A DNA stretch of 64,000 nt, taken from NCBI GenBank assembly GCA_025823825.1, contig GCA_025823825.1_4720.1; one strand, given 5' to 3'. Each line of letters begins with the position of its first letter. The stretch's first letter is position 1. Both the position numbers and the translations under genes were made by a program. The notes below the pieces were generated by a model, which was given only the letters and a program-made list of their open reading frames with translations, was not told the DNA's origin and did not search any database. This DNA comes from a phage. Below are positions 1 to 57,102 of the stretch, piece by piece.

Positions 1-480
1 AGGAAAGCCATGCGGGTATGGTAGTCCAGCGGCATGTTATCGATACCGCGATACAGATAACGGTTTGCGTTAAATGCCCCTTCGCTGTTATCTTTCCAGA
101 TCTTCAGAATATCAGCAAAGGCGGTGCGGAAAACCTCAGGATTATCCACATCCAGTAACGCACGGAAAGCAGACATTAAAGACCGCTGATGACGGATCAA
201 CGACTGCGGCGTTTGCGGCATGGTCGGACCCATTTCTTCCGCATATTTCTGGAACGGAGCAACCAGGGTTGCGGCACGAGAAGCCACGATAGAAACAGCA
301 GGCGATTCTTTCACCGCCGGTTTCGCAGGCTTTTCTTCAACAACGGTTTCCTTCTTCTCAACAGCGACCGTTTCCGGCTGTGCTACAACATCACTAACCG
401 GAGCATCTGCAACGGTGGTTTCTACCGCAGTAATCTCCTCGTCCATTTTTGCAGAACGTTGGTCTTTATTCTTGCTCATG
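1..480 (-). CDS. hypothetical protein, partial (3' end beyond window start)
   Basis: ATG at 478-480 on minus strand opens a frame (MSKNKDQRSAKMDEEITAVE...) that runs off position 1 without a stop; absent from ORF track because no stop lies in the window. Confidence 0.4.
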
Positions 481-504
481 TTTATTTCCTTTCATTTAAC
501 AAGG

Positions 505-1806
505 TTAACTAATATAAAGTTCAGGATCGTAAGGCGCTAACGATACACTGGCGTTATGCATTGCTTTCATCATAGTGTTCATGAAAACGTTGTTTACACC
601 GGTGATCTCTGCCCCGATCGCGTCTGGGGTTGGAGCCATCGCGTTACCGCAACAGGTAGCACAGTATTCCAATGGGCCTGCTTTACAACGTTGAGGATCA
701 CGTAACTTGATGGTCTGTCCTTCCAAGGAAGCAAGTAATTCAGCATCAATAAGTTTAAGCGCTGCGCCGTCGATCATGTAACGGCCGACAAGCAGCTTAT
801 CTTTGATATGATCGCGGTTTACCGTGAACAGAATATGTTCGTGGGTACCACAGTCGTCCATCGTGATTTTAAGGTTCTGTGTCGCACGTTGTGATTCTTT
901 CGCCGTCTGTCCCGCTAAAGCGGTCAGTGCGCCACGTGAGAACGAACCTGCACGTGCACTGTTGTTGTACTCCGCCCAATGGTCGACACGCATCCCTTCA
1001 GCCAGGCTGTGTGTGATAACGTTACGTTTACCAGGGTCAACGAAGTCGGCTTCAACCCCCATCATGATGTGTGTTTTCTTTCGAGTATTACCGAAACTCT
1101 TGCCTGGGTTAATATAGAACCCTTCCGATTCATCACCCTTAAAGGATTCCTTATCCATTTTGGTTAGCGTAGCTTCGAGTTTGATCAGTTCTTCAGGCGT
1201 GAACTTACCTTCCTCTTGTAAGCGTGCTAACTCTTTATCGCGATAGGCAATAATATCATCATCGACCGTTAACGCTTTATCGCTCATCGATGGGACAATT
1301 AAACGGTTGATAGCGGTTAACGCACTAATATTGTTGGTGAATTTCTTCACTTCGCTTGCGTACAGCGGGCCAATAGGACGTTCGTTAGGATCGGGTATCC
1401 CCTCTTCGGGATCGTCCGCTACGCGTGGCGCAATCAGTGATTCCAGTGTACCGCTGGTCAACCGTCCTGCCTGATATTCAATCTGAATACCGAAAGCATC
1501 ATAAAGGACGTACATATTGAACAACGCTTCACCGAAGGTTGTGGTGGTCGTATTCTTAACCGACGGTAGATCACCAGGTGCGAGCTCCAATGGCTCCCAG
1601 AAACTCAACAAGGGTTTTGTTGGCTCGGTTTCCCATTGATGTTCTTCACCGTCGATGGTAACCGTAACGACGTTACCTTGACGATGTAATTTGGGCTGAT
1701 ACTTCTCAGCACCACCTTCCGTAAAAGCAAACGCGTCGTTAATCCATTCAAGATAACGGTAGTGCCCTTCACGCATCGCGTAAAGGAAATATTCACGAGG
1801 TGTCAT
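505..1806 (-). CDS. hypothetical protein (433 aa)
   Basis: Long minus-strand ORF, co-directional with neighbours; no motif recognised. Confidence 0.65.
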   Translation of the reverse strand: MTPREYFLYAMREGHYRYLEWINDAFAFTEGGAEKYQPKLHRQGNVVTVTIDGEEHQWETEPTKPLLSFWEPLELAPGDLPSVKNTTTTTFGEALFNMYVLYDAFGIQIEYQAGRLTSGTLESLIAPRVADDPEEGIPDPNERPIGPLYASEVKKFTNNISALTAINRLIVPSMSDKALTVDDDIIAYRDKELARLQEEGKFTPEELIKLEATLTKMDKESFKGDESEGFYINPGKSFGNTRKKTHIMMGVEADFVDPGKRNVITHSLAEGMRVDHWAEYNNSARAGSFSRGALTALAGQTAKESQRATQNLKITMDDCGTHEHILFTVNRDHIKDKLLVGRYMIDGAALKLIDAELLASLEGQTIKLRDPQRCKAGPLEYCATCCGNAMAPTPDAIGAEITGVNNVFMNTMMKAMHNASVSLAPYDPELYIS

Positions 1807-1819
1807 GTAACAACTCCTT

Positions 1820-2698
1820 TTAAACCTGGGTCAGGTCGCCGCGACGTGAAACGAACTCTGATAACGCTCGGGTTGCTTCTTTGGATTCTTCAGCCATCGG
1901 GAAGTTTGCGGTAATAAGTTCTCGTAAGACGGGAATAATTTCATTATCTTCGAGATCAGAAGCTAAAGCGAATGCAATCAGTTCTTGGGTGTATGCATAC
2001 GGTTGCTGGCGTAATGTAGCCAACTGATTCCGACACTGCGCCATCAGCAAGTCTAGTGGAACCGCTATTGTACCCCCTTCATCAATATATTGGCTGAACA
2101 CCGGTGGGAACGCATCGCCGATTACACGAATTCGTCGACGAATATGATCCGGAATCAGGACGTTTTCTTCATCGACGACGTTTTCGCTATCTTTCTCCAG
2201 CTTCTTGGTCAGTACCTCTTGAATACGTGGAAGTAAGCTTGAATGTACGAAACTGATTAACGGTGTTACGTTAACAGCATCAACGCCGTAAATATGATGC
2301 GCGCATTCCGCCAGCGCTTCAGCTGTGGTGTAGTCTTCATCTTCAACGATAGCGAGTAGAAAAGCGGTATCGTCGTGTGTTTCCAGGTCTAATAACGTAG
2401 ACGCCAGTGCATGAAGATATTTCAGGCTATCCAGAGTTAGCTGTCCTTCGTTAATTCGGATCCCGAAGGCAAGCAATTGTTGTTTATAAAGTTCGATACA
2501 TCCGTTTGTTAAAATGATATCTAATTCGTTTAAATCGTATTGTTCCCCAGCACCTGATAACATCGTACTGCAGAACGTTTCCAGTTGTTCGCATTTAAAA
2601 TCTTGGTATAAACGATGCATGCAGTGCTGTAACAGCGTACGCCTTGTTTCAGGGATCTTACCTTCTAACAAAGCCAAGACGGAATCAATCATATCCAC
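1820..2698 (-). CDS. hypothetical protein (292 aa)
   Basis: Minus-strand ORF 14 nt upstream of 505..1806; no motif recognised. Confidence 0.6.
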   Translation of the reverse strand: MDMIDSVLALLEGKIPETRRTLLQHCMHRLYQDFKCEQLETFCSTMLSGAGEQYDLNELDIILTNGCIELYKQQLLAFGIRINEGQLTLDSLKYLHALASTLLDLETHDDTAFLLAIVEDEDYTTAEALAECAHHIYGVDAVNVTPLISFVHSSLLPRIQEVLTKKLEKDSENVVDEENVLIPDHIRRRIRVIGDAFPPVFSQYIDEGGTIAVPLDLLMAQCRNQLATLRQQPYAYTQELIAFALASDLEDNEIIPVLRELITANFPMAEESKEATRALSEFVSRRGDLTQV

Positions 2699-2788
2699 TC
2701 CGATGCGGTAAATGTCTACTAGCTCTCATAATCTATTGAAGAAACTACCGGCTTACGCCAACTTAGATTAATCAGGAGTAACCATCCC

Positions 2789-3262
2789 ATGCCAGTTTCA
2801 TCCAAACCAAGAAAAAAATCAGTAGGAAAACCGAAAGCTCAGGAAACAACAGCAATTCGTTGGGACGAGTTACGTGAACCTATCGAAAACTGCGAATTGT
2901 TATTGGGCACCCTGGGTGCGGCTATTTACCAAGCGACGCAGCCCTGTCGTTTACGATTAACCCAAAACAAACGTGATGAGTTCGTTGCGTTATCAACAAG
3001 CACGAATAAAGATCTGACCGAACTTCAAACCGAGTTGACGACGATCAAGAACTCCATTACGCCGATGTACGGTAAAGAAGTCGATGAACAAAGTATTCTG
3101 TTACAGTACAACTACGGGATGTCGTTAATGAACATCCTGGAACGCGCATCCGATATTCTGCGTCCTGACGTTGCACGCCTGAGCCAACTGCGTGTTGAAG
3201 GGATGGAGAACCAGATCCGATTCGCTAACAGTGTTAAATCTCAAGGAGCCACCGAAGCATGA
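2789..3262 (+). CDS. hypothetical protein (157 aa), basic N-terminus
   Basis: ATG preceded by AGGAGT; stop TGA overlaps the ATG of the next gene (ATGA). Confidence 0.6.
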   Translation: MPVSSKPRKKSVGKPKAQETTAIRWDELREPIENCELLLGTLGAAIYQATQPCRLRLTQNKRDEFVALSTSTNKDLTELQTELTTIKNSITPMYGKEVDEQSILLQYNYGMSLMNILERASDILRPDVARLSQLRVEGMENQIRFANSVKSQGATEA

Positions 3263-6917: not shown

Positions 6918-9530
6918 TTAAGCGTCTGGTGTAAAATCAAAAGGAATGTCCGTACGAATGATATCATAACGTTTTCCTAGGAAATAAAACTCTTCGGGAA
7001 CCTGGCCGGGAATAATGCTATCGCCGATGAACTGCGGATACGCCCAGATGTACTGAGTGAGTCCTTCGAACTTATCCAGGTTATTTGCGTGGTTACCCAT
7101 GATACGTTTCCAGAGTTCGCGTTTATACGGTGTTTTAACATCGAATCCATAAAGCGGTGCAAGATCTTCACCAGGAACAAATCCCAGGTAATAATGGATC
7201 TGACTAACCGGGAAACCAAGCGTATCTCGCGGAATGGTGATCGCTTGCTCAGCCTTGGTGACATGCGTTTCAATAATCCAGTCGTAGCACTCCGAATAGA
7301 ACCGATCGAATTTCTCTGGGTTATACCACGCTTTGGGAAGATTCAGTTTCTCCGTGAACGCGTTCGACATGATCGTCGGCAAGAACGGAAGAACGCCGGT
7401 TTTGATCTGCGTGTATTTCGATTTTACCCGGTTAACCAAATTCCAGCAACTGTATCCTAATTGGTCGTTACAAAACTCAACGTAGAGATCGTAGTCACCA
7501 CCGGATAACGGGTTGTTAATATCACCGATGTCTGCGGCGTATTTGTTGGGATATCGGTTATTGAAAGCCAGTTTGGTTTGGTAATCGTAGATACACGGTT
7601 TGTTGTTCGCTGTATTGATCCACCACCAGGGTTCACCTATTTGCACACAAATGTCCTGGACATGGGGGTAGATGATATCAGCAAACGCGGTTAACACGTC
7701 CCCTAACCACGCCATCGCCTGTTGGTTACATGGAGACAGCAACCAGGACGGTGGTGTATATCCGGTTGCGGCGATGTTTCCTTCCCAATCCTGCTGCGCC
7801 CACTCGAACGGGCATGCTGTACTCATCAATTCGTAACTTAAACTGATGGTGACAGAGAAATGGTGTTTTGCAGCATATGCGGCGAAAGCTTCATGCCACG
7901 CGATACAGGGTGGATTTAATACATCCGTGGTGTTCACCAGTAACTTACCCGCACTTGGCGTCCAGACAGTATCGTAGAAATGCGACATTCCAACATAATG
8001 CACTAATTCATCTTGATACCCCGCATAAACCAGGTTTTCAAATACGCGCTCCGGCGTGATGTTGTAATGGTCATCGTAAGCGGTTATCGCACGAAGTTCG
8101 TGTGGTGTACAATGATGGCGATTAACCGTCATTTCTTGATACACCCCATCGATAGGAAGAATCTCGAGGGTTAAACCGAGGTCGATTGGCGTTTCCAGAT
8201 AGGTCGTTTCAGTCGCATCTTCCTTATAATGTCGAGAACTCATGCTGAACATCAACGACGTTACCGATTCGAGTTCGATAGGCTCGTCAGCATAGAACCC
8301 CGCCATTGCGTCATTGAAATCGATCGTTACGATTGCGCTTCTACCGTCTTCAGAGACATCGGTGGCGTATCGGGTTAATGAGATATACTGACGGCTATCG
8401 TCTTTGTGTACGATGGTTAGAACCGGCGGGTTTTCGGTATCTGCAAAGTTACGCTGATCGCCAGTAAACGTGATCTTCGCTTTAAAGATCAAACCGAATA
8501 ACGACGTCATGGGATCATACGCAATACAACCGTGATCCAGCGTATCCGTTGTCCGCCATTCTATCCCGACCAACCCGTTAGCGGTATGGCATCGCATATA
8601 CGCATTAAGGACCATGTCTTCACTGACAACCGCGAAGTTCTCTGTTGACTGACCGTTGATAATCCAATACATCGGTTGCCAGAGGTTACGCGTACCTTTT
8701 GCGTAGCGGTAGGTTGGTGCGCCTTTAGGGTTGCCATTATTGAGATGGAATACGGCAGTACCTTGATAATGGTCGTTCGTATTAATCGGAACACTGTAAG
8801 CATCACCGAGATCCGTACGTTCGACCTTCGTGACTGTTGCGTTTTCAAATAACCCACGTAGCGCCGGTAAACCGATATCTTCAGGCGCGTTTTCTCGACG
8901 AATCGCATCCGCGATGCGGTGGGCTAAGGCAGGGTAAATGACCTCACCCTGCTGTAGGTTTGCAAGACCTACAAAGCGATCGGGGTCGATGCTAGCAATC
9001 AATAACTCGACATCACCCTTCGTTCTATCGTCGTTAAGATATTTCAGTCCGGTAAGGTCAAGATGCTGAATAAGCGACAACAGGTTGTATTTACGGTTTT
9101 CAACAGTTAGTACAAGATCGCCTGCCCAAACCAAACTTCCCTCATCCGCTGTTACTTTAACGGATTGTCGGCCTGTGGTAGACGTTGTTGTCGTTTTATT
9201 TAATTGTCCTTGTAGGAAGTCGGTTGCGAGGTCAAAGGCAATGCCGTAACGGTCAGCGACCGCTTGCATGATTTCACGTAACTGGGTATCTTCTTCAATG
9301 ATAATCTTGACAGGTATTCCCAAGAACGCTTTAGCGAGGTCTCGTTTAACCAACGAGACGAATACGGATTTGTAGTATCGACTTCCATCTTTCCCTTTAA
9401 AAAGAATGGAGGTTGTTTCGGGTGCCGATAGAACACGTGCAAATTCAACATCGTCGAAAGTAAGAGAAAGTCCGTTTTTCTCGTTGGTTAATCTTAGTAT
9501 TTCATTTTGCGCGGTTTCATGTAACTTCAT
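6918..9530 (-). CDS. tail fibre/tailspike-like protein (870 aa) with shared N-terminal module
   Basis: N-terminal ~170 aa paralogous to 15425..15952, 16108..17862 and 55648..57102; GAGG 8 nt upstream of ATG. Confidence 0.6.
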   Translation of the reverse strand: MKLHETAQNEILRLTNEKNGLSLTFDDVEFARVLSAPETTSILFKGKDGSRYYKSVFVSLVKRDLAKAFLGIPVKIIIEEDTQLREIMQAVADRYGIAFDLATDFLQGQLNKTTTTSTTGRQSVKVTADEGSLVWAGDLVLTVENRKYNLLSLIQHLDLTGLKYLNDDRTKGDVELLIASIDPDRFVGLANLQQGEVIYPALAHRIADAIRRENAPEDIGLPALRGLFENATVTKVERTDLGDAYSVPINTNDHYQGTAVFHLNNGNPKGAPTYRYAKGTRNLWQPMYWIINGQSTENFAVVSEDMVLNAYMRCHTANGLVGIEWRTTDTLDHGCIAYDPMTSLFGLIFKAKITFTGDQRNFADTENPPVLTIVHKDDSRQYISLTRYATDVSEDGRSAIVTIDFNDAMAGFYADEPIELESVTSLMFSMSSRHYKEDATETTYLETPIDLGLTLEILPIDGVYQEMTVNRHHCTPHELRAITAYDDHYNITPERVFENLVYAGYQDELVHYVGMSHFYDTVWTPSAGKLLVNTTDVLNPPCIAWHEAFAAYAAKHHFSVTISLSYELMSTACPFEWAQQDWEGNIAATGYTPPSWLLSPCNQQAMAWLGDVLTAFADIIYPHVQDICVQIGEPWWWINTANNKPCIYDYQTKLAFNNRYPNKYAADIGDINNPLSGGDYDLYVEFCNDQLGYSCWNLVNRVKSKYTQIKTGVLPFLPTIMSNAFTEKLNLPKAWYNPEKFDRFYSECYDWIIETHVTKAEQAITIPRDTLGFPVSQIHYYLGFVPGEDLAPLYGFDVKTPYKRELWKRIMGNHANNLDKFEGLTQYIWAYPQFIGDSIIPGQVPEEFYFLGKRYDIIRTDIPFDFTPDA

Positions 9531-9552: not shown

Positions 9553-10194
9553 TTAGATGTACTGCTTACCGCCCACGAAGGAAGTTAACCAGTTCCCGCT
9601 GACGAGTTGTGATACCCAACCTGGAACGGCTCTACCATTCTGGCTCATGATGTTACCACACCAACCAGGGAATCCGGGACGGATGTAATAGAAAGTTAAA
9701 TTGTAGAGATGGCAATTCCATACCGCAACGTTATGTTTACCAGAAACCGCTTTAAAGATAAACGCGACAGGTAACGGAGACGATAACAATTCGGTCACAG
9801 GGACGGCTGACCAGTTCGCATTCGCGTTCCATGGTTGCCAGGTATGGCTACGCGAGTCACCGTTAACGTTACCGTTGCTACCGCGTCCGCCCGCGTTCCA
9901 CCAAAGCGATGGACTCATGTTCTTAAGTGAGGTAAATTGCTGTGGTGGAATATTCGGAATGATAACAGGGTTGGTACCTTGTCCGTGTTTCTTTTCTTTT
10001 GCGTTCACATAGCCGTTTATCGATTCCAGGTATTTGGTACCAGGATAATTGTTCTGGACTTGTGTCGCAATATCACGAACATCGAACGTCCAGCAGATCA
10101 TGGTGTTGTAGTAAGCATCGGTGTTGTCGTACCATGCGTTACCATCTTGTAAACGTGCGCCACTATTCGGTGTTTTATCTGTGTTTATAGCCAT
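9553..10194 (-). CDS. hypothetical protein, paralogue of 10306..10971 (possible fibre-associated adhesin)
   Basis: C-terminus RPGFPGWCGNIMSQNGRAVPGWVSQLVSGNWLTSFVGGKQYI nearly identical to that of 10306..10971. Confidence 0.55.
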   Translation of the reverse strand: MAINTDKTPNSGARLQDGNAWYDNTDAYYNTMICWTFDVRDIATQVQNNYPGTKYLESINGYVNAKEKKHGQGTNPVIIPNIPPQQFTSLKNMSPSLWWNAGGRGSNGNVNGDSRSHTWQPWNANANWSAVPVTELLSSPLPVAFIFKAVSGKHNVAVWNCHLYNLTFYYIRPGFPGWCGNIMSQNGRAVPGWVSQLVSGNWLTSFVGGKQYI

Positions 10195-10305
10195 AGTGTT
10201 GTCCTATACTGCGATGATTGAGATATCGGATGCCGGATGTGTGTTGCCATCAGGTGGTACGTACAGAAACACCCACAGATAAAACAGTAGCTTCTCTAAC
10301 TTCAA

Positions 10306-10971
10306 TTAAATTGAAGTTAGATATTGTTTACCTCCAACAAACGACGTTAACCAATTACCTGAAACAAGTTGCGATGCCCAGCCAGGCACTGCCCTACCGT
10401 TCTGGCTCATCACGTTACCTGCCCATCCCGGAAAACCCGGTCGGAAAATATATACTTGAATATGTGTTAAAGCGTTATCATTACCACTGCCAACAGCAAC
10501 GTTACGACTCCCAGATGACGGGAAATATTCTTTTAAGAACAGAGGATCGGTTGCTAATAAAGATGCGGGCCAAGGGTTCGCGGATGCATCAACATCGAAT
10601 TCGGTCCATCGCCATTTACGTCCCGTGTCGAACCATGTCGATGTACCACCACCCCTCACGGCAAGATTGCGCGCATCACGGACATTATAAATTGATTCGA
10701 TGTTACGCCATCCACCTTTTGCAGCGTTTGCTGCATAGCAAACCGCATTACCACCATTCTTCTTCTCGTAAACGGTTCGTTTGATATGAACACGGTCGAT
10801 GAACGCTTCACCGTATTTGTTGACGAGCGTTTGTGCGATATCACGAAGATCGTGCATGTGAAAAGCGATGTCTTCGTTATGGAACCATGTTGTCTGGTTC
10901 CAGACGGTACCGTTTGGTTCGGCACACATCGATCGGATATTGTTGCGTTGATTAATCGCGATAAAACCCAT
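10306..10971 (-). CDS. hypothetical protein, paralogue of 9553..10194
   Basis: Shared C-terminal block; start set at ATG 10971 (MGFIAINQ...) just after a terminator hairpin and T-rich tract. Confidence 0.55.
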   Translation of the reverse strand: MGFIAINQRNNIRSMCAEPNGTVWNQTTWFHNEDIAFHMHDLRDIAQTLVNKYGEAFIDRVHIKRTVYEKKNGGNAVCYAANAAKGGWRNIESIYNVRDARNLAVRGGGTSTWFDTGRKWRWTEFDVDASANPWPASLLATDPLFLKEYFPSSGSRNVAVGSGNDNALTHIQVYIFRPGFPGWAGNVMSQNGRAVPGWASQLVSGNWLTSFVGGKQYLTSI

Positions 10972-11026
10972 TGTATACCTCGTTCCTATTCTCAAAAAGG
11001 AAATTTCATACGATGACGCCATAGCA

Positions 11027-11056
11027 GCTCCTCCTTCCCTTACGGGTTGGAGGAGC
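11027..11056 (-). terminator. intrinsic terminator-like stem-loop (GCTCCTCC...GGAGGAGC)
   Basis: 8-bp GC-rich stem followed on the minus strand by a T-rich tract, downstream of 11065..11571. Confidence 0.5.
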
Positions 11057-11064
11057 ATACTTAA

Positions 11065-11571: not shown

Positions 11572-11619
11572 TAGATTTCCTTATGTGTTAACGGAAGTGA
11601 CTTCCATAAGGATTGATGA

Positions 11620-12009
11620 TTACTTTTTGAGCGCTTTAAGTTCTTCTTCCAACGCTTCCACTTTTGCCGTAAGCTTCTGTACTTGTTTGATTAATGGAAC
11701 CACCAAACGTTCGTACATAACACCTTCAGCGACGAGTCCGTTAGAAGAAACGATAGCGGGGTCATCTTCTTCGGTTGCATCACGCCAGTGCACGTACTGC
11801 GGTGCGATCTCACCAACCTCTTCAGCAATCAACCCATACCAACCCCAATCCTTGTTGTCTGCTTCACATGTGGAACGATACCAAACAGGACGCATCTCCA
11901 ATACTTTATCCGCTTGTTCATCCGTGATATTCTCGATATCTTTCTTATAGCGACGCGACGACGTTGAACGAAACACATTGTTGATCCCAGAAACAGGACT
12001 GATATACAT
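11620..12009 (-). CDS. S74-type intramolecular chaperone domain protein (free-standing)
   Basis: SRRYKKDIENI...WYGLIAEEVGEIAPQYV...VMYERLVVPLIKQVQKLTAKVEALEEELKALKK matches the layout of the C-terminal chaperone domain of endosialidase-type fibres. Confidence 0.6.
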   Translation of the reverse strand: MYISPVSGINNVFRSTSSRRYKKDIENITDEQADKVLEMRPVWYRSTCEADNKDWGWYGLIAEEVGEIAPQYVHWRDATEEDDPAIVSSNGLVAEGVMYERLVVPLIKQVQKLTAKVEALEEELKALKK

Positions 12010-12058
12010 GTTAGCCCCGCTGGTTGTAGTGCTAATGTCCCATACCGCAAATCCGCCG

Positions 12059-15000
12059 TTACTCCCATTTTTTTACGATCAATGTGTTGGCAATAATGTC
12101 CAGGTTATTGTCGTAACCGGTTAATTGTCTTTCCGTTACATAACTGGATAGATTGACCGAGTAGTTCTTACTGTTATAACAACGACGCCATCCTGGGCTG
12201 TTGGTACTGCCATTATAGTTGTCGTAGCTATAAATGAACTCGGAGTTGGTTTTCGCACCACTGACGGAAGACGTGGTTGCGGTCGTAACACGGATGGTAT
12301 AGTTTGTCATCCCGAAGCTAACGACCTCGATAACAGCACCAGCCAGAGGGATAATACCGCACTTGGTTTCACTGTCTGGGATGTATGCGCTGTCGGCAGC
12401 TGCGAAGGAGCAACGTGCGACCCAGGCGCGGGTATTGAATGCACCTTGGTTTTGCAACAACGTGATAAACGATGAGGTCGTAATCGAGCTGTTATTATCA
12501 CCGGTGATCAACCAGCCGGTCGGGCATGCGGTTGCGCCAACGTTTTTCGCTGTTAACGTGATGTTCTGCGATCCGTCGAAGGCTACGCCACTGATAGTGC
12601 GCGCAGTCTGCAGTTTCGTCGCCGTTGCTGCGTTCCCTGATGTGTTCTGGTTCCCTGCGGCGTTAACACCCGGCAGATTGATATTCGCACTACCGTCGAA
12701 AGACACCCCACCAATGGTGCGGGCGGTTTTCAGTTTTGTCGCCGTGGCGGCATTACCGGTCGTGTCTTGGTTACCGGTGGTGTTTACCCCAGGTAGGTTG
12801 ATATTGGCCGTTCCGTTAAATGAAACACCACCAATCGTCCGTGCCGTTTGCAACTTCGTTGCGGATGCCGCATTCCCCGTGGTGTTTTGGTTACCTGTTG
12901 TATTCACACCTGGGATACTATCCTTAGATGTGTAGATCTGTGCCCATTCCGACCAGTTCGCATCTGATGCATCACGACGCGAACGTAGGTAAGCTGGAGC
13001 GTGTGCGCCTGAAGTACCTGACCATCCAATAAGGATCTCACCTTCACCTACTGCGGTTGCTCCTTTAAGATGAACAACGTTACCGTAGGCTGTAGGGTAT
13101 CCGTTATTGTACGCTTCATACATCTGGATGCCCGTATTGCTGCCCTGGGTCGCATTAGCTAAAGCGGTGACTCGTCCCATGGAAGCGAGCACGTTAATGC
13201 TAAAGCTAATATCAGTTGTACCATCAAAGGCGACCCCATTAATCTTCCGTGCTGTTTGGAGTTTCGTGGCAGTAGCCGCATTACCAGAGGTACTCTGATT
13301 ACCTGCTTTGTTCACGCCTGGTAAATCAATGTTGGCGGTTCCATCAAAGGACACACCCCCTATGGTTCTCGCCGTCTGAAGTTTTGTTGCTGAACCGGCG
13401 TTTCCGGAAGTGCTTTGATTACCCGCCGCGTTAACACCCGGTAGGTTAATGCTAGCAGAACCATCAAAAGAAACACCACCGATTGTGACAGCCGTTTTCA
13501 ATTTCGTGGCTGTCGCAGCGTTACCCGTTGTATTCTGATTGCCAGCTGCATTGACGCCAGGTAATGCGATATCAGCTGTGCCATCGAACGCGACACCGCC
13601 TATTTTACGGGCGGTTTGTAGCTTGGTTGCTGTAGCGGCATTACCGCTGGTATTTTGCGTACCGGCTTTATTTACACCGGGAAGATCGATGTTAGCAGAA
13701 CCGTCGAAGCTGACGCCACCTATTGTTCTTGCGGTAGCGAGTTTAGTTGCTGTGGTTGCAGCATTACCAGCCTTTAACCATTCGCCCCATGGGCCATCCA
13801 CGCCGTTCCATGAAGCTGTTAAACTACGTACGTAAATATTTCCTGTACGTACGGTGTAACGCTGTGTTCCACCGAATTGCCCAGCTGGGAGCACTTCGAT
13901 GTAACCTACTGCGTTTGCTTCAGGGAAATTGTGGGCAGCATCAGCATTCGTTGACGTTTGTTTGGACCAAATACCCACAGACGCTTCAACCGGACCGTAG
14001 GTATTTAGATTCGCATCGGTGGGAAGCTGTCCTCGGAAACGTCGGAATAATGAAGCTGTTAACCCCAACGTTGTTTGCATCCCTTCAATGCTTGACTGCG
14101 ATAAAAGCGCCCGAGCTGTCGACGTGATAGCCGCTAAAGCAACCTTATCCGTACCGGTAAAATACGGGAATTTGTTTGCTGAAGTTGCTAAACCTGAAAG
14201 GGCGGTCAGTAATGCGTTAAGGGGTTGTTTCCCAGCCAGCGCGTTAGTTACTGTTGTTGCGAAATTAGGGTCGTTGCCTAAAGCTTGAGCCAGCTCATTA
14301 AGCGTATTTAGCGCTTCTGGCGACGAGTCGATCAGTGATGCGATAGCACGCATCACAAATTCCGTGTTGGCGATCTGTTGACTGCTATCGTTATCTGCAG
14401 CCGTAGGTGCTGCTGGGATACCGGTGAACACAGGGTTATTAAGATCTGCCTTGAGAGCGATGAGACGTCTAAGCGCTTCGACATCGACTTTCAGGTTTTC
14501 CCATCCGACGAGATAACCATCACCGGTTGTATGATAACGGTTGTACCAAAAATCACCATTGACACCGAAATAGAATATTCCTTTCTCTTCGTATTGTGGG
14601 CCGGAACTGTTCCGTGATGAGCTAATGTATTTTATTTCGATAAGGCCGTCGAATACCACTCCTGGGATGATTTTATTATTTCCAGCTGGCTGTGATACTT
14701 GGTACATCCCCGGGGTTGCGGCTTTAACCCACGTTAAGAATTCTGTTACTCCGGCGCTACCACTGAAATTCTTAACGTCGGTAAGTATCGCCCCATAACC
14801 GAACATACCGGGTAGAGCAACTCGTCCGCTGGTACGGTCACGAATATTTGATGCGACGACAGGCAGCTGTTTACGAACATTGTTAACCGCCTTAGGTGTG
14901 GCCGATTTTGTCTCGTCATCGCTATCGATGGCGTTGCTCAGGATGGTCAGTCCTCGAGTATTTGTGGTCGCATCAGGAAGAAACGCGTTATCCAACACCT

Positions 15001-15418
15001 TAAGTTGTACAGCGCTCGTGTTACTAACAACGAGATACATCTGACAGTTAAGAACGCTGGATGCACCTTCAGTAGGCACCGGCTTATATCTTTCCGGTGC
15101 GCTGCAAACAGCGATCAGAACACCCTGATCGTCATACAGACCGATTTCACGTACCCAGAATCCACCTTGGTTTACAGGAATAATACCCTCAACAATAATC
15201 CTGGTTGTGTCATCCGTATCGACACGGATATTAGCAACTTCCCCACGATAAACTTCGTGTACGAGCGCTGTTTGACCAACAGCCGGTGTCGGTATCGACC
15301 CGTTACCATCGCCAACAGCAAAATGTGTGATTTTTAGTTTCTCGCCACCAGGAAGTAGTGCGGCGGCGATACGTTCAGCGCCTTTATCGGTAATGACCGT
15401 TTTATATGTTGTACTCAT
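12059..15418 (-). CDS. long tail fibre protein, P2 gpH-like N-terminus with tandem fibre repeats
   Basis: N-terminus TVITDKGAERIAAALLPGGEKLKITHFAVGDGNGSIPTPAVGQTALVHEVYRGEV and block IANTEFVMRAIASLIDSSPEALNTLNELAQALGNDPNFATT resemble P2 gpH; about ten repeats of ...GNAATATKLQTARTIGGVSFDGSANIDLPGVN... Confidence 0.85.
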   Translation of the reverse strand: MSTTYKTVITDKGAERIAAALLPGGEKLKITHFAVGDGNGSIPTPAVGQTALVHEVYRGEVANIRVDTDDTTRIIVEGIIPVNQGGFWVREIGLYDDQGVLIAVCSAPERYKPVPTEGASSVLNCQMYLVVSNTSAVQLKVLDNAFLPDATTNTRGLTILSNAIDSDDETKSATPKAVNNVRKQLPVVASNIRDRTSGRVALPGMFGYGAILTDVKNFSGSAGVTEFLTWVKAATPGMYQVSQPAGNNKIIPGVVFDGLIEIKYISSSRNSSGPQYEEKGIFYFGVNGDFWYNRYHTTGDGYLVGWENLKVDVEALRRLIALKADLNNPVFTGIPAAPTAADNDSSQQIANTEFVMRAIASLIDSSPEALNTLNELAQALGNDPNFATTVTNALAGKQPLNALLTALSGLATSANKFPYFTGTDKVALAAITSTARALLSQSSIEGMQTTLGLTASLFRRFRGQLPTDANLNTYGPVEASVGIWSKQTSTNADAAHNFPEANAVGYIEVLPAGQFGGTQRYTVRTGNIYVRSLTASWNGVDGPWGEWLKAGNAATTATKLATARTIGGVSFDGSANIDLPGVNKAGTQNTSGNAATATKLQTARKIGGVAFDGTADIALPGVNAAGNQNTTGNAATATKLKTAVTIGGVSFDGSASINLPGVNAAGNQSTSGNAGSATKLQTARTIGGVSFDGTANIDLPGVNKAGNQSTSGNAATATKLQTARKINGVAFDGTTDISFSINVLASMGRVTALANATQGSNTGIQMYEAYNNGYPTAYGNVVHLKGATAVGEGEILIGWSGTSGAHAPAYLRSRRDASDANWSEWAQIYTSKDSIPGVNTTGNQNTTGNAASATKLQTARTIGGVSFNGTANINLPGVNTTGNQDTTGNAATATKLKTARTIGGVSFDGSANINLPGVNAAGNQNTSGNAATATKLQTARTISGVAFDGSQNITLTAKNVGATACPTGWLITGDNNSSITTSSFITLLQNQGAFNTRAWVARCSFAAADSAYIPDSETKCGIIPLAGAVIEVVSFGMTNYTIRVTTATTSSVSGAKTNSEFIYSYDNYNGSTNSPGWRRCYNSKNYSVNLSSYVTERQLTGYDNNLDIIANTLIVKKWE
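12580..13790 (-). repeat. in-frame tandem repeats (~28-40 aa units) within the tail fibre gene, two blocks
   Basis: Repeated ATKLQTAR(T/K)IGGVxFDG motif in the translation; antisense shadow ORFs also repetitive; coordinates approximate. Confidence 0.6.
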
Positions 15419-15424
15419 GGCGTT

Positions 15425-15952
15425 TTATCCCGGGTAAATAGTGATGGTGTCACCAACGATAGTTGTAGCACCGGCGTAAAGATACGCTGGTGATGCCTCA
15501 CGTTGGTTTGTCACGATAAGATCCAGTCTCCCACGCCAAACCACGGAGGTATTCGCGATGGGAATCGAGATCTTCTTGGAAGTATCGTCACGAAAATTAA
15601 TGGCGGTAGCAAGGGTAACTGAATCAAAATCAACGTCGGGTTCAAAGTTGAATCCGTATTGATCTGAAATAGCTTGAATAACCGCTCTTATGGTTGTTGT
15701 TTCAACCGACTCCAAAACGATTTTTATCGGTATTCCTAGAAATGCTTTCGCGATATCACGTCGTGTGTAAGTGATAAAACTTTCACCACACCACCTTGTT
15801 CCTTCATTTGCTGTGACGATCACTTTTGCCCTGTTAGCACCAGAACTCCCATCCAGGGTTAAAGTGAGATCGGAGTTGCTGAATACACTACCGTTACGTT
15901 GGTTTATCAACGTAATAAGTTCGTCTTTCCATGGTGGGTAAAGTGAACGCAT
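15425..15952 (-). CDS. fibre adaptor module protein (shared N-terminal module only, ~175 aa)
   Basis: Start ATG 15952 (MRSLYPPWKDELITLINQRN) with GGAGGAGG 8 nt upstream; TAA is in frame with and 6 nt upstream of the fibre ATG. Confidence 0.55.
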   Translation of the reverse strand: MRSLYPPWKDELITLINQRNGSVFSNSDLTLTLDGSSGANRAKVIVTANEGTRWCGESFITYTRRDIAKAFLGIPIKIVLESVETTTIRAVIQAISDQYGFNFEPDVDFDSVTLATAINFRDDTSKKISIPIANTSVVWRGRLDLIVTNQREASPAYLYAGATTIVGDTITIYPG

Positions 15953-15992
15953 ATGCGCACCCTCCTCCAATAATCAAATTAAAATGCAAAAC

Positions 15993-16107: not shown

Positions 16108-17862
16108 TTATGCTGCTACATACCCAGGCCAACGTTCTCTTGGCCAGTTTGTTGCGCCCTGTCCAACGTTGTCCTTACCAGAAGTTACATTACTTACATC
16201 CCAACCACTAAGATCCTGGTTAAATGCGGTGTTGTTACGCATCATGAGGTCGATATTACGTAATGATTGGGTATTCCAGCCGGAAATGTCTTGGTTGAAT
16301 GCCGTGTTGTAAGCAAACATGTTAACAACGTTTTGTAATTTTGAAGTGTTCCAGCCGCTAATATCGCCATTGAACTGCATGTTCGAGAACATACTGCTAG
16401 CATCGATAAGACTATCTGTTTTCCAGTTAACCAGCTTGTTCTCATCAAGTGCGTTGCAACTACTGAACATGTAACTCATGTTGTTAACTTTGGATACATC
16501 CCATTTATCTAACCCGTTACCAACGAACTCGTAACAAGCTTGGAACATCCAGCTCATGTCGGTAACCTGGCACACATTCCATTTGCTAAAGTCGAGGTTG
16601 AGTTTTGCGCATCCGGAGAAAGTTTTATACATACTGGTGATACGACTAACATCCCATTCTTGAATGTTAGGATCATTAAGTATAGATAAGAATTGGAACA
16701 ATCCGTCTAACGACGTCCATTTCTCTGGAATACGGTTTGGTACTGTACGGAGCGATGAAAGGTTATTGGTTGACGGAGAGCGGAACATACCGTTATCCCA
16801 ATTTACGATTTCCGTAATGTTGTACCCACGGATCGTTTGGCGTCCATTACCATTATACACAGACCCTGTTGCAGTTATTGTATATTCGTTTGTATCAGCA
16901 TACGTATATTCAGCCTGTGTAGGCCACTCACCTATTACATCCCTATTCCCATCACCCCAGTCAATGGAAATATCTATCCAACCATCAAGATCTAGGGTAA
17001 CGGTCCCGCCATTGGTCTTCAGGATGTATTTACCTGCATTGTCGGTATAATAACAAACAATCATCGCACCGTACAGGTTACCAATTTGCCAATCATCCTT
17101 TTGAGTTACCGCGATTTGTGCTGTACCACGCTGTAAGAAAAGTACCGTACGGTTCTCGTCAGTCTGTAGTGCGGTTAGTGCTTGAGTCTTATCATCGTCG
17201 GTAATTTCACCGGCTTCCATTAAAGCACTTAACATTCTTTCGAAGTACTCGATAGGCAACTGAGGTCCTACCGACATATCAACTGATGGAACAGTGAGAT
17301 CATCCAATGCTGCTGCCGTTGCGAGGACTAATGATCCCTTGGCGGTGTCTGTTTCTTGGAGGTAACGCAGTCCCGTAATCTGGTACGCTTGAATGATTGT
17401 AATCAGATCCAGTGTATCGTTAATGACCTGTACTTGTAAATGTCCAGACCAAACATAGCTGCTTTCAGCAATCGGTAATTCGACCGACTGAATACCCGAC
17501 GTTTCAAAACTGATCTTCTTATTAAGATCGGCTTCCAGGAAATCAACAGCTAGGTCGAAATTTATACCGTACTTCTCAGCGATGGAATCTACAATGTTCC
17601 TGAAAGCAACATCGGTACTTACGATGAAACGTAACGGGATCCCGGTGAACGCGTTGGCAATATCTCGACGAACATACGTGAGCGACTGCTCGAAGAAATA
17701 AGGACTGTTATCTCCAGGTTTGATGGTTACCTGGCATACTTCAGGATGTTCAGCTGGAATGAAAGATTCGAATTTAACGTCGGTTTCCTTCAACGATAGC
17801 ATGTTCTTCCGGTTTACCAACGCCAGAAGATCAGCTTTCCACCCAGGATAAACTGTAGACAT
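16108..17862 (-). CDS. tail fibre-like protein with shared N-terminal module and C-terminal BspA-like (DUF285-type) repeats
   Basis: Start ATG 17862 (MSTVYPGWKADLLALVNRKN) with GGAG upstream; C-terminal repeats WDVSxVxxMxxMFxxxxxFNQDISGWN. Confidence 0.65.
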   Translation of the reverse strand: MSTVYPGWKADLLALVNRKNMLSLKETDVKFESFIPAEHPEVCQVTIKPGDNSPYFFEQSLTYVRRDIANAFTGIPLRFIVSTDVAFRNIVDSIAEKYGINFDLAVDFLEADLNKKISFETSGIQSVELPIAESSYVWSGHLQVQVINDTLDLITIIQAYQITGLRYLQETDTAKGSLVLATAAALDDLTVPSVDMSVGPQLPIEYFERMLSALMEAGEITDDDKTQALTALQTDENRTVLFLQRGTAQIAVTQKDDWQIGNLYGAMIVCYYTDNAGKYILKTNGGTVTLDLDGWIDISIDWGDGNRDVIGEWPTQAEYTYADTNEYTITATGSVYNGNGRQTIRGYNITEIVNWDNGMFRSPSTNNLSSLRTVPNRIPEKWTSLDGLFQFLSILNDPNIQEWDVSRITSMYKTFSGCAKLNLDFSKWNVCQVTDMSWMFQACYEFVGNGLDKWDVSKVNNMSYMFSSCNALDENKLVNWKTDSLIDASSMFSNMQFNGDISGWNTSKLQNVVNMFAYNTAFNQDISGWNTQSLRNIDLMMRNNTAFNQDLSGWDVSNVTSGKDNVGQGATNWPRERWPGYVAA

Positions 17863-18088
17863 AAGCACTCCAATCATGGGGGCGAACGCCCCCCATCAGT
17901 TAAATGATCGTTTACGTCGCGTAAGGGTAATATAATTGCTGTGAGCCATATCAGAAGTTCACAACATTCTGAATCATAAGGTTACGTCGTTGGAAACAAA
18001 CCGATACAGATTCTTCATAGAACATTGAGATGATGGAAACCTAATTCGTACCATGAAAGCCGCAATAAAAAAAAGAAAAATAGGAAAA

Positions 18089-18118
18089 CGGTGTTCATCC
18101 TTTTAGGGATGAACACCG
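18089..18118 (-). terminator. intrinsic terminator (12-bp stem CGGTGTTCATCC / GGATGAACACCG)
   Basis: Perfect hairpin followed on the minus strand by a T-rich run (plus-strand A8 at 18067-18074), downstream of 18139..18717. Confidence 0.6.
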
Positions 18119-18138
18119 CGTACCGTTATGTTGAATGC

Positions 18139-55552: not shown

Positions 55553-55647
55553 TTAAGAAGCCCTGCCGTCAAGCAGGGCTTTATGCTGCGTTTGTTGCAA
55601 GATCGTATGACGTATATGCGTTGTACTTATTTAAAAAGGCAGAATAA

Positions 55648-57102
55648 ATGAAACTCAAACAAAGCTGGAAAGACGAACTTCTCGCGTTAGTAAACAACAA
55701 AAACAGTTTACAGCTGACATTAGACGACGTAAAATTTGAACTAACTGAACCGGTAAGCGAAGTGCCCGGAACAGTCGTCGTTACGATCAAACCGAACGAT
55801 GATAGCCGTTACTTTAACGAGCAGTCTCTGACCTACATCCGTCGAGACATCGCTAAAAACTTCACCGGGATCCCGTTACGTGTTATCGTTAAAAATGATA
55901 CCGTCGTAAGGGATATCATCAATACGATTGCTGAACGTTACGGATTGGTATTTGACACAACCGTTGACTTCCTCGAATCAGAGCTGAATAAGCAGATTAC
56001 GTTCGAAGACACCGGTATTAAAGACATTACGGTTCCGGTTGCAAACACGTCTTATGTTTGGGCTGGTAATCTTCAGTTCAATATCGCTAACGATACGTTA
56101 AGCTTGATTACGATCATCAAGGAAACCAATCTTACGAATCTGGTTTATCTGGATGGCGTTGAAGCTGACACAACCGGATCGTTATTATTAGCAACGGCCT
56201 CGATTATCGACGATAACGGAAATACCGAAACAACTGAAGGTGTCCTTGATGCCGAGTACTTCCAGAATGTCCTGAATGTCATGGTTCGTTATGGTGATAT
56301 TACCAGCGAACAAATGCAACAAGCAATGCAGACAATTAACCAAAACGAAGACGTTCGTGAAGTGGAGGTTAAGTCATACGGCGACTCTGAGCTGTTGGTA
56401 ACCACAAAGAAAGATTGGGCTATCGGTAACCTTAAGGGCGCTATGGCAGTTGTTCGCAACGCTCAACCGAAACCAATTCAGTACATTCTCAAAACGAATG
56501 GCGGCTCCGTTACACTAGCATTGGACGGTTGGACAAATATTTCCATCGATTGGGGTGATGGGAATAAAGCAACATTACCAGGCGGACAAACTCGCGGATT
56601 CCACGAATACAGTGACGGTACAGAACGTACGATTGTAGCTACTGGTGTCCTCTCAAACCCTGAAGCACCAACACAGACACAAACCATCAGCGGCGATAAC
56701 ATCACTGAAATCGTTGACTGGAACAACGGATTACCGCAGGCTGTACAATTAACGGGATTAACCAGTTTGATTAAGGTTCCCGATTATATCCCGTCATACT
56801 GGACAACGTTGGAAAGTTTGTTCGAGAGCTGCTCATCGATAAACGACGTAAACATCACGAAATGGAATACCGGTAACGTCACATCAATGAAGAATTTGTT
56901 CTTTGGCTGTAACGTCTTCAACCAACCGATCATCGTATGGGATGTTACCCATGTAACAAATATCGACAATATGTTCTCGGGATGTTCGGCGTTCAACCAG
57001 GATCTAAGGATGTGGTCATTCCCAGCGGATACTTCCCGCAACAACTACGATAACGGTGCTACAGCCTGGCGGTCAGAGTATCGTCCAAGCTTCGATTTGT
57101 AA
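55648..57102 (+). CDS. tail fibre-like protein with shared N-terminal module and C-terminal BspA-like repeats (remote, opposite-strand paralogue)
   Basis: N-terminus MKLKQSWKDELLALVNNKNSLQLTLDDVKF... paralogous to 16108..17862; C-terminal ...VFNQPIIVWDVTHVTNIDNMFSGCSAFNQDL. Confidence 0.65.
   Translation: MKLKQSWKDELLALVNNKNSLQLTLDDVKFELTEPVSEVPGTVVVTIKPNDDSRYFNEQSLTYIRRDIAKNFTGIPLRVIVKNDTVVRDIINTIAERYGLVFDTTVDFLESELNKQITFEDTGIKDITVPVANTSYVWAGNLQFNIANDTLSLITIIKETNLTNLVYLDGVEADTTGSLLLATASIIDDNGNTETTEGVLDAEYFQNVLNVMVRYGDITSEQMQQAMQTINQNEDVREVEVKSYGDSELLVTTKKDWAIGNLKGAMAVVRNAQPKPIQYILKTNGGSVTLALDGWTNISIDWGDGNKATLPGGQTRGFHEYSDGTERTIVATGVLSNPEAPTQTQTISGDNITEIVDWNNGLPQAVQLTGLTSLIKVPDYIPSYWTTLESLFESCSSINDVNITKWNTGNVTSMKNLFFGCNVFNQPIIVWDVTHVTNIDNMFSGCSAFNQDLRMWSFPADTSRNNYDNGATAWRSEYRPSFDL

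Follow-up and report, generated by a model that had tools for sequence, protein, structure and literature searches.

Two DUF7941 proteins with DUF285-type leucine-rich repeats in a Goslar-like jumbo phage, one of them in place of Goslar gp092 and gp093 beside the tail-fibre gene

The locus and its two paralogous genes

Two paralogous genes, p1 (16108..17862, minus strand) and p2 (55648..57102, plus strand), lie in a 64,000-nucleotide stretch of phage DNA (GenBank assembly GCA_025823825.1, contig GCA_025823825.1_4720.1), which is referred to as a whole as the window. Their products share an N-terminal DUF7941 domain, a predicted linker, a connector, a beta-rich domain and C-terminal leucine-rich repeats (LRRs). 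Escherichia phage Goslar, a nucleus-forming chimallivirus, aligns collinearly to the window, with 86–97% identity around the locus. Residue numbers of p1 follow its longest open reading frame (ORF; 16108..17877, minus strand), which has 589 amino acids. Model confidence is given as the predicted local distance difference test score (pLDDT). The features of the two genes are as follows.

16108..17862, minus: p1 gene, DUF7941 + beta-rich domain + DUF285 LRR protein, 584 amino acids (ORF, Pfam)
17329..17829, minus: p1 globular N-terminal domain (NTD), DUF7941, residues 17–183; Pfam PF25613, 76.9 bits (cut-off 27), E = 2.4e-21; PHROG 1037/2935, 'virion structural protein'
17281..17418, minus: p1 predicted flexible linker, residues 154–199; AlphaFold pLDDT below 50
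17023..17280, minus: p1 helical and beta connector, residues 200–285; AlphaFold helices 208–220 and 226–238, strands 244–277, pLDDT 60–77
16723..17022, minus: p1 beta-rich domain with the IDWGDGN motif, residues 286–385, directly N-terminal to the LRR; pLDDT above 90
16153..16722, minus: p1 DUF285/PARCEL LRR, predicted solenoid, residues 386–575; one partial and six full repeats of 24–26 residues and the first 17 residues of a capping unit
16111..16152, minus: p1 C-terminal tail GATNWPRERWPGYVAA, the remainder of the capping unit; the p2 tail GATAWRSEYRPSFDL is similar
55648..57102, plus: p2 gene, orthologue of Goslar gp161, 484 amino acids, p1-like architecture with a shorter LRR; 79% identity to gp161, DUF7941 E = 1.6e-23, DUF285 E = 4.3e-21
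55657..56193, plus: p2 DUF7941 NTD, residues 4–182; Pfam PF25613, 84 bits (cut-off 27)
56500..56799, plus: p2 beta-rich WGDGN domain, residues 285–384, from the p1/p2 alignment and the p2 model; 60% identical to gp161
56800..57048, plus: p2 DUF285 LRR, residues 385–467; two full repeats and a partial first one, from Pfam, the tryptophan register and pLDDT above 90
18088..18119, minus: terminator-like hairpin with a stem of 13 bp and then a T run; it lies upstream of p1 and closes the preceding gene (sequence scan)

The two proteins are true paralogues by alignment, 48% identical over 447 aligned residues that span all domains, and p1 has about four extra repeats. This bears out an earlier suggestion, made in a first-pass annotation from the sequence alone, that the two genes are paralogues with a common C-terminal repeat domain. 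p2 follows the SNF2 helicase gene, as gp161 does in Goslar, and has the same length and the same architecture of DUF7941, beta domain and DUF285. Goslar gp161 is a paralogue of p1 (45.5% identity over residues 13–451). p1 exceeds gp161 by about four repeats and lies at another locus, in the tail-fibre module; Goslar has no orthologue of p1.

The ATG at 17862, which was also the start chosen at first pass, is likely to be a better start for p1 than 17877, because GGAG lies 6 nt upstream as a ribosome-binding site and the homologues are nearly all of 584 amino acids. These homologues, about 50 with 62–95% identity, come from contigs of 235–247 kb. Some carry the product names 'DUF285 domain-containing protein' or 'BspA family…', and the protein matches labelled 'E. 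coli' are mislabelled, being the p1-type phage protein on contigs of about 235 kb. A perfect G/C-rich hairpin, GGGGGGCGTTCGCCCCC (17875..17893, minus strand), ends directly before the in-frame ATG at 17877 and about 15 nt before 17862; it might affect initiation of p1 translation. Scans for sigma-70 promoters gave matches not above shuffled expectation. They are uninformative here, since chimalliviruses rely on RNA polymerases of their own. Directly after the stop codon of the SNF2 helicase gene, where a terminator is annotated in Goslar, stands a GC-rich hairpin that runs into TTT, GCCCTGCCGTCAAGCAGGGCTTT (55558..55585, plus strand). For this reason p2 seems to be monocistronic, with convergent genes on either side.

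Repeat family and predicted fold

The first-pass annotation had described C-terminal repeats of the form WDVSxVTxMxxMFxxCxxFNQDISGWN in both proteins and associated them with the BspA-like or Mycoplasma-type DUF285 family. The repeats are present where they were reported: 16108..16710 encodes p1 residues 390–589 and the stop codon on the minus strand, that is, the C-terminus, and the consensus fits the units of both proteins. Pfam DUF285 (PF03382) matches p1 with 150.4 bits (E = 2.3e-44) and p2 with 75.3 bits (E = 4.3e-21; cut-off 25). NCBIfam TIGR02167 'PARCEL repeat' (now 'PARCEL repeat-containing surface protein') matches p1 in four stretches (65.3 bits, cut-off 30) and falls just under the cut-off in p2, with 27.1 bits. 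The DUF285 part of the assignment therefore stands, and the BspA part does not. Pfam LRR_5 (PF13306) has no match in p1 or p2 even at E <= 1; on these profiles the correct label is 'DUF285/PARCEL-type LRR' and not BspA-type in the strict sense. The repeat consensus of BspA of Tannerella forsythia and other LRR_5 proteins differs from that of p1 and p2, and 'BspA family' is, in RefSeq/NCBI, a product name put on DUF285 proteins.

The invariant tryptophan sets the register of the array. The full units of p1 begin at W408, W433, W459, W485, W509 and W534 and have 25, 26, 26, 24, 25 and 25 residues; they are flanked by a partial first unit (386–407) and a capping unit (559–589). In p2, two full units (W406 and W431) stand between partial first and capping units. 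No tandem repeat was found at the DNA level in the repeat-coding DNA, from which it follows that the units are old, diverged protein repeats and not the product of recent duplication. An inverted-repeat scan, which did not reproduce the motif statistics used for PARCELs, gave just two weak inverted repeats (12–14 nt, 79–83% complementary) in 618 bases of this DNA, and the dyad symmetry described for PARCEL-coding DNA (PMC2996958) is not evident in p1.

An AlphaFold2 model of p1, computed from an alignment of 33 sequences, has high confidence between residue 280 and the C-terminus (pLDDT 85–98) and one short beta bridge per 24–26 residues. The repeats of both proteins are modelled as a curved LRR solenoid like that of solved LRR proteins, the structure prediction that had been proposed as a check at first pass. 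The p2 model has the same layout, with pLDDT above 90 in the LRR and below 50 in the linker (residues 150–196). A Foldseek search of the PDB with the p1 model gave no significant match. In structural likeness the solved BspA-type protein BACOVA_04585 (4fs7) ranks 43rd, behind LRR classes that include the Nogo receptor, XopL and variable lymphocyte receptors, which leaves no specific affinity to BspA.

The beta-rich domain is joined to the repeats in phage and cellular proteins alike. D305-W306-G307-D308-G309 is nearly invariant in homologues of both kinds, and the cellular homologues align to p1 from about residue 290. The connector that precedes it (residues 200–285) is common to p2 and is absent from cellular DUF285 proteins. 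A Pfam search assigns no family to the p1 beta-rich domain. The idea that it is a PKD domain was not confirmed, Pfam PKD having no match at E <= 1.

The DUF7941 module and a proposed role at the baseplate

Both proteins had been called fibres at first pass. Their N-termini are DUF7941 domains, and Pfam and PHROG find no fibre domain (collar or N-terminal, fibre repeats, trimerization, S74) and no tail-fibre assembly partner in either; what the profiles match at the C-terminus is DUF285 and not an ordinary fibre fold. The genuine fibre gene lies nearby, together with two further DUF7941 genes.

12059..15418, minus: classical tail-fibre gene, not DUF285; Pfam Phage_tail_fib E = 1.5e-43, Phage_fiber_2; PHROG tail-fibre families
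15425..15970, minus: DUF7941-only paralogue equivalent to Goslar gp091, probable start ATG 15952; Pfam DUF7941 E = 1.3e-16, phmmer, collinear with Goslar
6918..9530, minus: fourth DUF7941 paralogue, equivalent to Goslar gp086, with DUF7941, NCTSP_N and a TIM barrel (profile searches)

The matches of p1 and p2 cover positions of about 5–188 of the 276 in the DUF7941 profile, and tblastn with the NTD of this type finds matches in jumbo phages only. In both models a folded NTD is followed by a low-confidence linker, as expected for DUF7941 proteins, for which a 'disordered linker' has been described (10.64898/2026.04.21.720040). By profile match, by this layout and by their chimallivirus genome, p1 and p2 are members of the DUF7941 family. 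The same preprint describes the family as chimallivirus-specific and proposes that its members form head-to-tail filaments at the peripheral baseplate. It names ten members, including gp86, gp91, gp92, gp93 and gp161, the last consisting of DUF7941 and an LRR. Mass spectrometry puts gp161 at about 110 copies per virion, filaments of gp22 were seen by negative stain, PhiKZ gp126/gp127 were fitted into peripheral-baseplate density, and a 'fibre cloud' was proposed to serve host recognition (10.64898/2026.04.21.720040). The presence of gp161 in the virion and the formation of filaments by DUF7941 proteins are taken from this source. Because a PDB sequence search with p1 and with the DUF7941 N-terminal profile found no relative, the link from the DUF7941 N-terminus to PhiKZ gp127 rests on Pfam and the preprint.

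The explanation favoured here, with moderate confidence, is that p1 and p2 are virion proteins in which a ligand-binding LRR tip, together with the beta domain, is carried on baseplate-anchored DUF7941 filaments for early multivalent contact, as an exchangeable cassette. The proposed steps are these. (i) The DUF7941 domain and linker most likely incorporate p1 and p2 into, or dock them onto, head-to-tail filaments that extend from the peripheral baseplate. (ii) The connector and the beta-rich 'WGDGN' domain would form the second part of each protein. (iii) In the LRR solenoid, a conserved hydrophobic scaffold would display variable surface residues. (iv) The LRR and the beta domain would together be the ligand-binding end. 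(v) First contact with a surface structure of E. coli, or with its surroundings, is probably made through this end, reversibly and multivalently, before the classical tail fibre comes into play. (vi) The place that p1 occupies next to the fibre gene is taken in related phages by a DUF7941 protein of glycosidase type (Goslar gp092/gp093), so the slot would hold an exchangeable host-recognition cassette. The presence of p1 in the virion, the binding of a host-surface ligand by the LRR and the kind of ligand named in step (v) are inferred.

The genomic setting of p2, between helicase and RNA-polymerase genes, would also suit packaged and injected effectors or intracellular factors whose LRR binds a host or phage protein during infection, and chimallivirus virions do carry many injected proteins (10.64898/2026.04.21.720040). 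Such a role is quite improbable. The DUF7941 module has been placed at the PhiKZ peripheral baseplate and forms filaments of an extracellular type, the PHROG families matched by both N-termini bear the annotation 'virion structural protein', and sister DUF7941 proteins bear glycosidase, carbohydrate-binding or fibre domains.

The slot beside the tail fibre

Against Goslar, the p1 gene stands in a replaced segment.

16121..18024, no strand assigned: 1.9-kb cassette of p1 and its flanks, without collinear Goslar counterpart (blastn of the window against Goslar)

Collinear Goslar blocks stop at 16120 (85.8% identity) and restart at 18025 (88.4%); in the same place Goslar has 4.5 kb that encode gp092 and gp093. 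Just two short, non-collinear Goslar matches fall inside the cassette, at 17519–17730 (the N-terminal region of gp086) and 17928–17991. The proteins that fill the slot in Goslar, gp092 and gp093, belong with gp086 to the same N-terminal DUF7941 family as p1. They differ at the other end: the C-terminal effector domains of gp092, gp093 and gp086 are enzymatic (carbohydrate-binding/glycoside-hydrolase-type) or beta-helix, in contrast to the LRR of p1. A Pfam search with gp092 found no match.

Other alleles of the slot were surveyed in Logan/ENA contigs, since IMG/VR had no more than three loci with the flanking gene, too few for a survey. Two of the contigs encode apparent chimeras of anchor and tip; both are metagenome assemblies, and the joins call for confirmation by reads. 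In a Goslar-like contig (P0054), the p1 NTD (96% over 219 amino acids) is fused to a T4-gp34-type fibre/trimerization domain and an S74 chaperone. A third contig (P0060) encodes a protein that joins a domain of the gp092 type (97% over 386 residues) with an LRR of the p1 type (77–78% over about 200 residues). On these alignments the slot appears to be recombination-prone, and p1 is read as an exchangeable host-recognition cassette with the same moderate confidence as the model as a whole.

Two further Goslar-like contigs differ within the Goslar-type occupant. In L006 (Logan ERR11019281 contig, 70..3150) and L007 (2224..3845), the first 81 codons of gp093 are joined to gp092 from residue ~732 on. 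This is an apparent 3-kb deletion or fusion. In L006 a tail-fibre gene is also missing from the interval that separates the gp091-like gene from Caudo_TAP. Both differences may be real variants or assembly artefacts.

Variation and selection

Among 50 p1 orthologues the NTD is the most conserved part (mean entropy 0.24 bits), followed by the LRR (0.49) and the beta domain, which is the most variable (0.72). Per-position entropy in the repeats separates a near-invariant scaffold (W0, the hydrophobic residue at 5, M11, F12 and the N/D/I/S/G before the next W) from variable positions 3, 4, 6, 7, 9, 10, 14 and -10 to -8.

The comparison of p2 with gp161 gives a similar picture of a conserved anchor and a variable tip. 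Identity falls from 97% in the NTD to 60–63% in the beta domain and LRR. Over the first 150 residues it is 96.7%, with a ratio of non-synonymous to synonymous divergence (dN/dS) of 0.05; in the LRR it is 63%, with dN/dS 0.12 and dS 2.3. Along the gene dN/dS lies between 0.05 and 0.43, the mark of a functional gene throughout, and dS rises from 0.29 to 2.3. Because dS rises in parallel, the C-terminal divergence is ascribed to mosaic exchange; the alignment indicates purifying selection combined with exchange of older tip alleles.

A purely architectural LRR, which caps, spaces or cross-links DUF7941 filaments or docks the tail fibre and has no external ligand, would be in keeping with dN/dS below 1 everywhere. 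Solenoids are common structural spacers, and p1 adjoins both the fibre gene and the DUF7941-only gene. Exposed repeat positions vary, however, and whole C-terminal modules are swapped among close relatives, which is unexpected for a contact constrained by a partner. Repeat number also differs between the paralogues (six full repeats against two). An exclusively structural role is thus held to be unlikely.

Distribution and origin of the repeat module

The first-pass annotation regarded such a domain as unusual for a phage and raised the possibility that it was captured from a host adhesin. Neither view is borne out. By tblastn the DUF285 module occurs in 116 phage records, mostly of jumbo phages, cyanophages and Prevotella and Listeria phages. 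They include OBP, PAU, N1M2, Yubaba, AH04 and Vibrio phages with 36–40 copies among the jumbo phages, 43 Synechococcus phage records, and phages of Prevotella, Listeria and Campylobacter. In BFVD, 76 viral structure matches are significant, giant viruses included, and particles of the giant virus AaV package DUF285 proteins (PMC7507832).

Pseudomonas phage OBP gp145 (OBP_145, 1713 amino acids), Erwinia phage AH04 gp170 (1698 amino acids) and Vibrio phage pir03 ORF200 ('PARCEL', about 19 kb) have DUF285 arrays like those of p1 and p2, next to baseplate or virion genes; for OBP_145 and AH04 gp170 the adjoining genes are baseplate genes. Their arrays are much longer than those of p1 and p2, with seven DUF285 stretches in AH04 (E = 2e-142), and AH04 gp170, unlike p1 and p2, has no detectable DUF7941 N-terminus. 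A conserved linkage of SNF2 helicase and DUF285 genes across chimalliviruses, raised by the pir03 gene table, fails at the best-matching OBP and AH04 loci, where the gene lies beside baseplate genes.

The PARCEL/DUF285 lipoproteins of Mycoplasma (e.g. LppQ) and proteins of other microbes resemble p1 and p2 in their repeats of about 25 residues, in which an amphipathic scaffold is conserved and hydrophilic positions vary (Roske et al. 2010, PMC2996958). The cellular proteins are usually membrane-targeted by signal or lipoprotein sequences, whereas p1 and p2 have a phage filament module at the N-terminus. Wide horizontal spread of the PARCEL repeat has already been argued (PMC2996958).

Recent capture of an adhesin from the host, E. 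coli, draws some plausibility from the unit of beta domain and DUF285, about 290 residues, which is common to cellular surface proteins, some with type IX secretion sorting domains. It is nevertheless very improbable and, on sequence comparison, not supported. A blastn search of 5,426 complete E. coli genomes found no DNA match. The cellular relatives belong to non-enterobacterial groups (Bacteroidota, Planctomycetota, Asgard, Lactobacillales) and the best are 27–44% identical, over residues ~290–585 or less. The whole architecture is common to both paralogues, and DUF285 is widespread in other chimalliviruses, which implies that the module is old in this lineage. An ancient exchange with cellular surface proteins is plausible.

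Immunoglobulin-like capsid domains mediate adherence of phages to mucus. The LRR could likewise bind non-receptor material, such as gut mucus or glycoproteins, and enrich the phage near its hosts with no role in host range. Goslar was isolated from duck dung, the cellular members of the DUF285/BspA family are located on the surface of host-associated bacteria (PMC2996958), and gp161, with about 110 copies per virion, would be better suited to weak, multivalent adhesion than to the part of a specific receptor-binding protein. The position of p1 in a host-range cassette beside the tail fibre, where it replaces a glycosidase-type protein, speaks against this, as does the occurrence of DUF285 in cyanophages of the sea and in viruses of algae, for which there is no mucosal setting. 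Adhesion of this kind is also unlikely.

Weight and novelty of the proposed role

Several points weigh against a ligand-binding tip on baseplate filaments. The proteomic support concerns gp161 and not p1, and the mass-spectrometry preparations also held non-virion assemblies (10.64898/2026.04.21.720040). The 'fibre cloud' is a preprint proposal drawn from AlphaFold predictions, negative stain of gp22 alone and mass spectrometry (10.64898/2026.04.21.720040). The occupants of the p1 slot in Goslar, gp092 and gp093, are low-copy, at about 5 per virion (10.64898/2026.04.21.720040). p2 and gp161 are coded among helicase and RNA-polymerase genes, outside the structural module, and the N-terminal half of the p1 model is of low confidence. 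Positive selection on the tip was considered and is not demonstrated, as dN/dS is below 1 and dS climbs alongside. A literature search found no paper that demonstrates binding by a viral DUF285 domain or characterizes one as a receptor-binding protein, and the ligand role of the tip is a proposal.

DUF285 repeats in phage proteins are not new, and the combination of DUF7941 with an LRR was already annotated and has recently been described for Goslar. Within this frame p1 is a new member, and what is new locally is confined to the replacement of the cassette. It amounts to a natural experiment: in a close relative of Goslar the gp092/gp093 slot is filled by an LRR-tipped DUF7941 protein, and related contigs add chimeras of anchor and tip. 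The slot swap and the chimeras support a view of DUF7941 proteins as exchangeable host-recognition cassettes. This is relevant to host finding by nucleus-forming jumbo phages, for which a DUF7941 'fibre cloud' was proposed only very recently. In a bolder version, which is doubtful, first contact and host range of Goslar-like phages would be determined primarily by the DUF285 LRR tips, borne on DUF7941 filaments of micron scale, and these tips would trade places, as cassettes, with glycosidase and fibre modules in the slot next to the fibre gene. If true, LRR solenoids would be a previously unrecognized and experimentally tractable class of phage receptor-binding domain, present in many jumbo phages, cyanophages and giant viruses.

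Other features of the fibre module

The distal end of the fibre module differs from that of Goslar. Where Goslar has the Caudo_TAP assembly protein (gp089), the window has an ORF of 129 amino acids with a Peptidase_S74 intramolecular chaperone domain (11620..12009, minus strand), 50 nt downstream of the stop codon of the fibre gene. DNA homology to Goslar is lost over 11609..12536. Two adjacent genes, 9553..10194 and 10306..11058 (both minus strand), encode paralogues of 213 and 250 amino acids with a near-identical C-terminus of about 45 residues (RPGFPGW.GN.MSQNGRAVPGW.SQLVSGNWLTSFVGGKQY), and neither has a Pfam family. The gene for the 250-residue protein lies within an insertion relative to Goslar (10247..10967). 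The tail-fibre protein itself (12059..15418, minus strand) contains at least nine copies of a repeat of about 40–45 residues (…GNQNTSGNAATATKLQTARTIGGVSFDGSANINLPGVN…), arranged in two blocks around a globular insert, and these repeats cross-match many positions of Goslar gp090.

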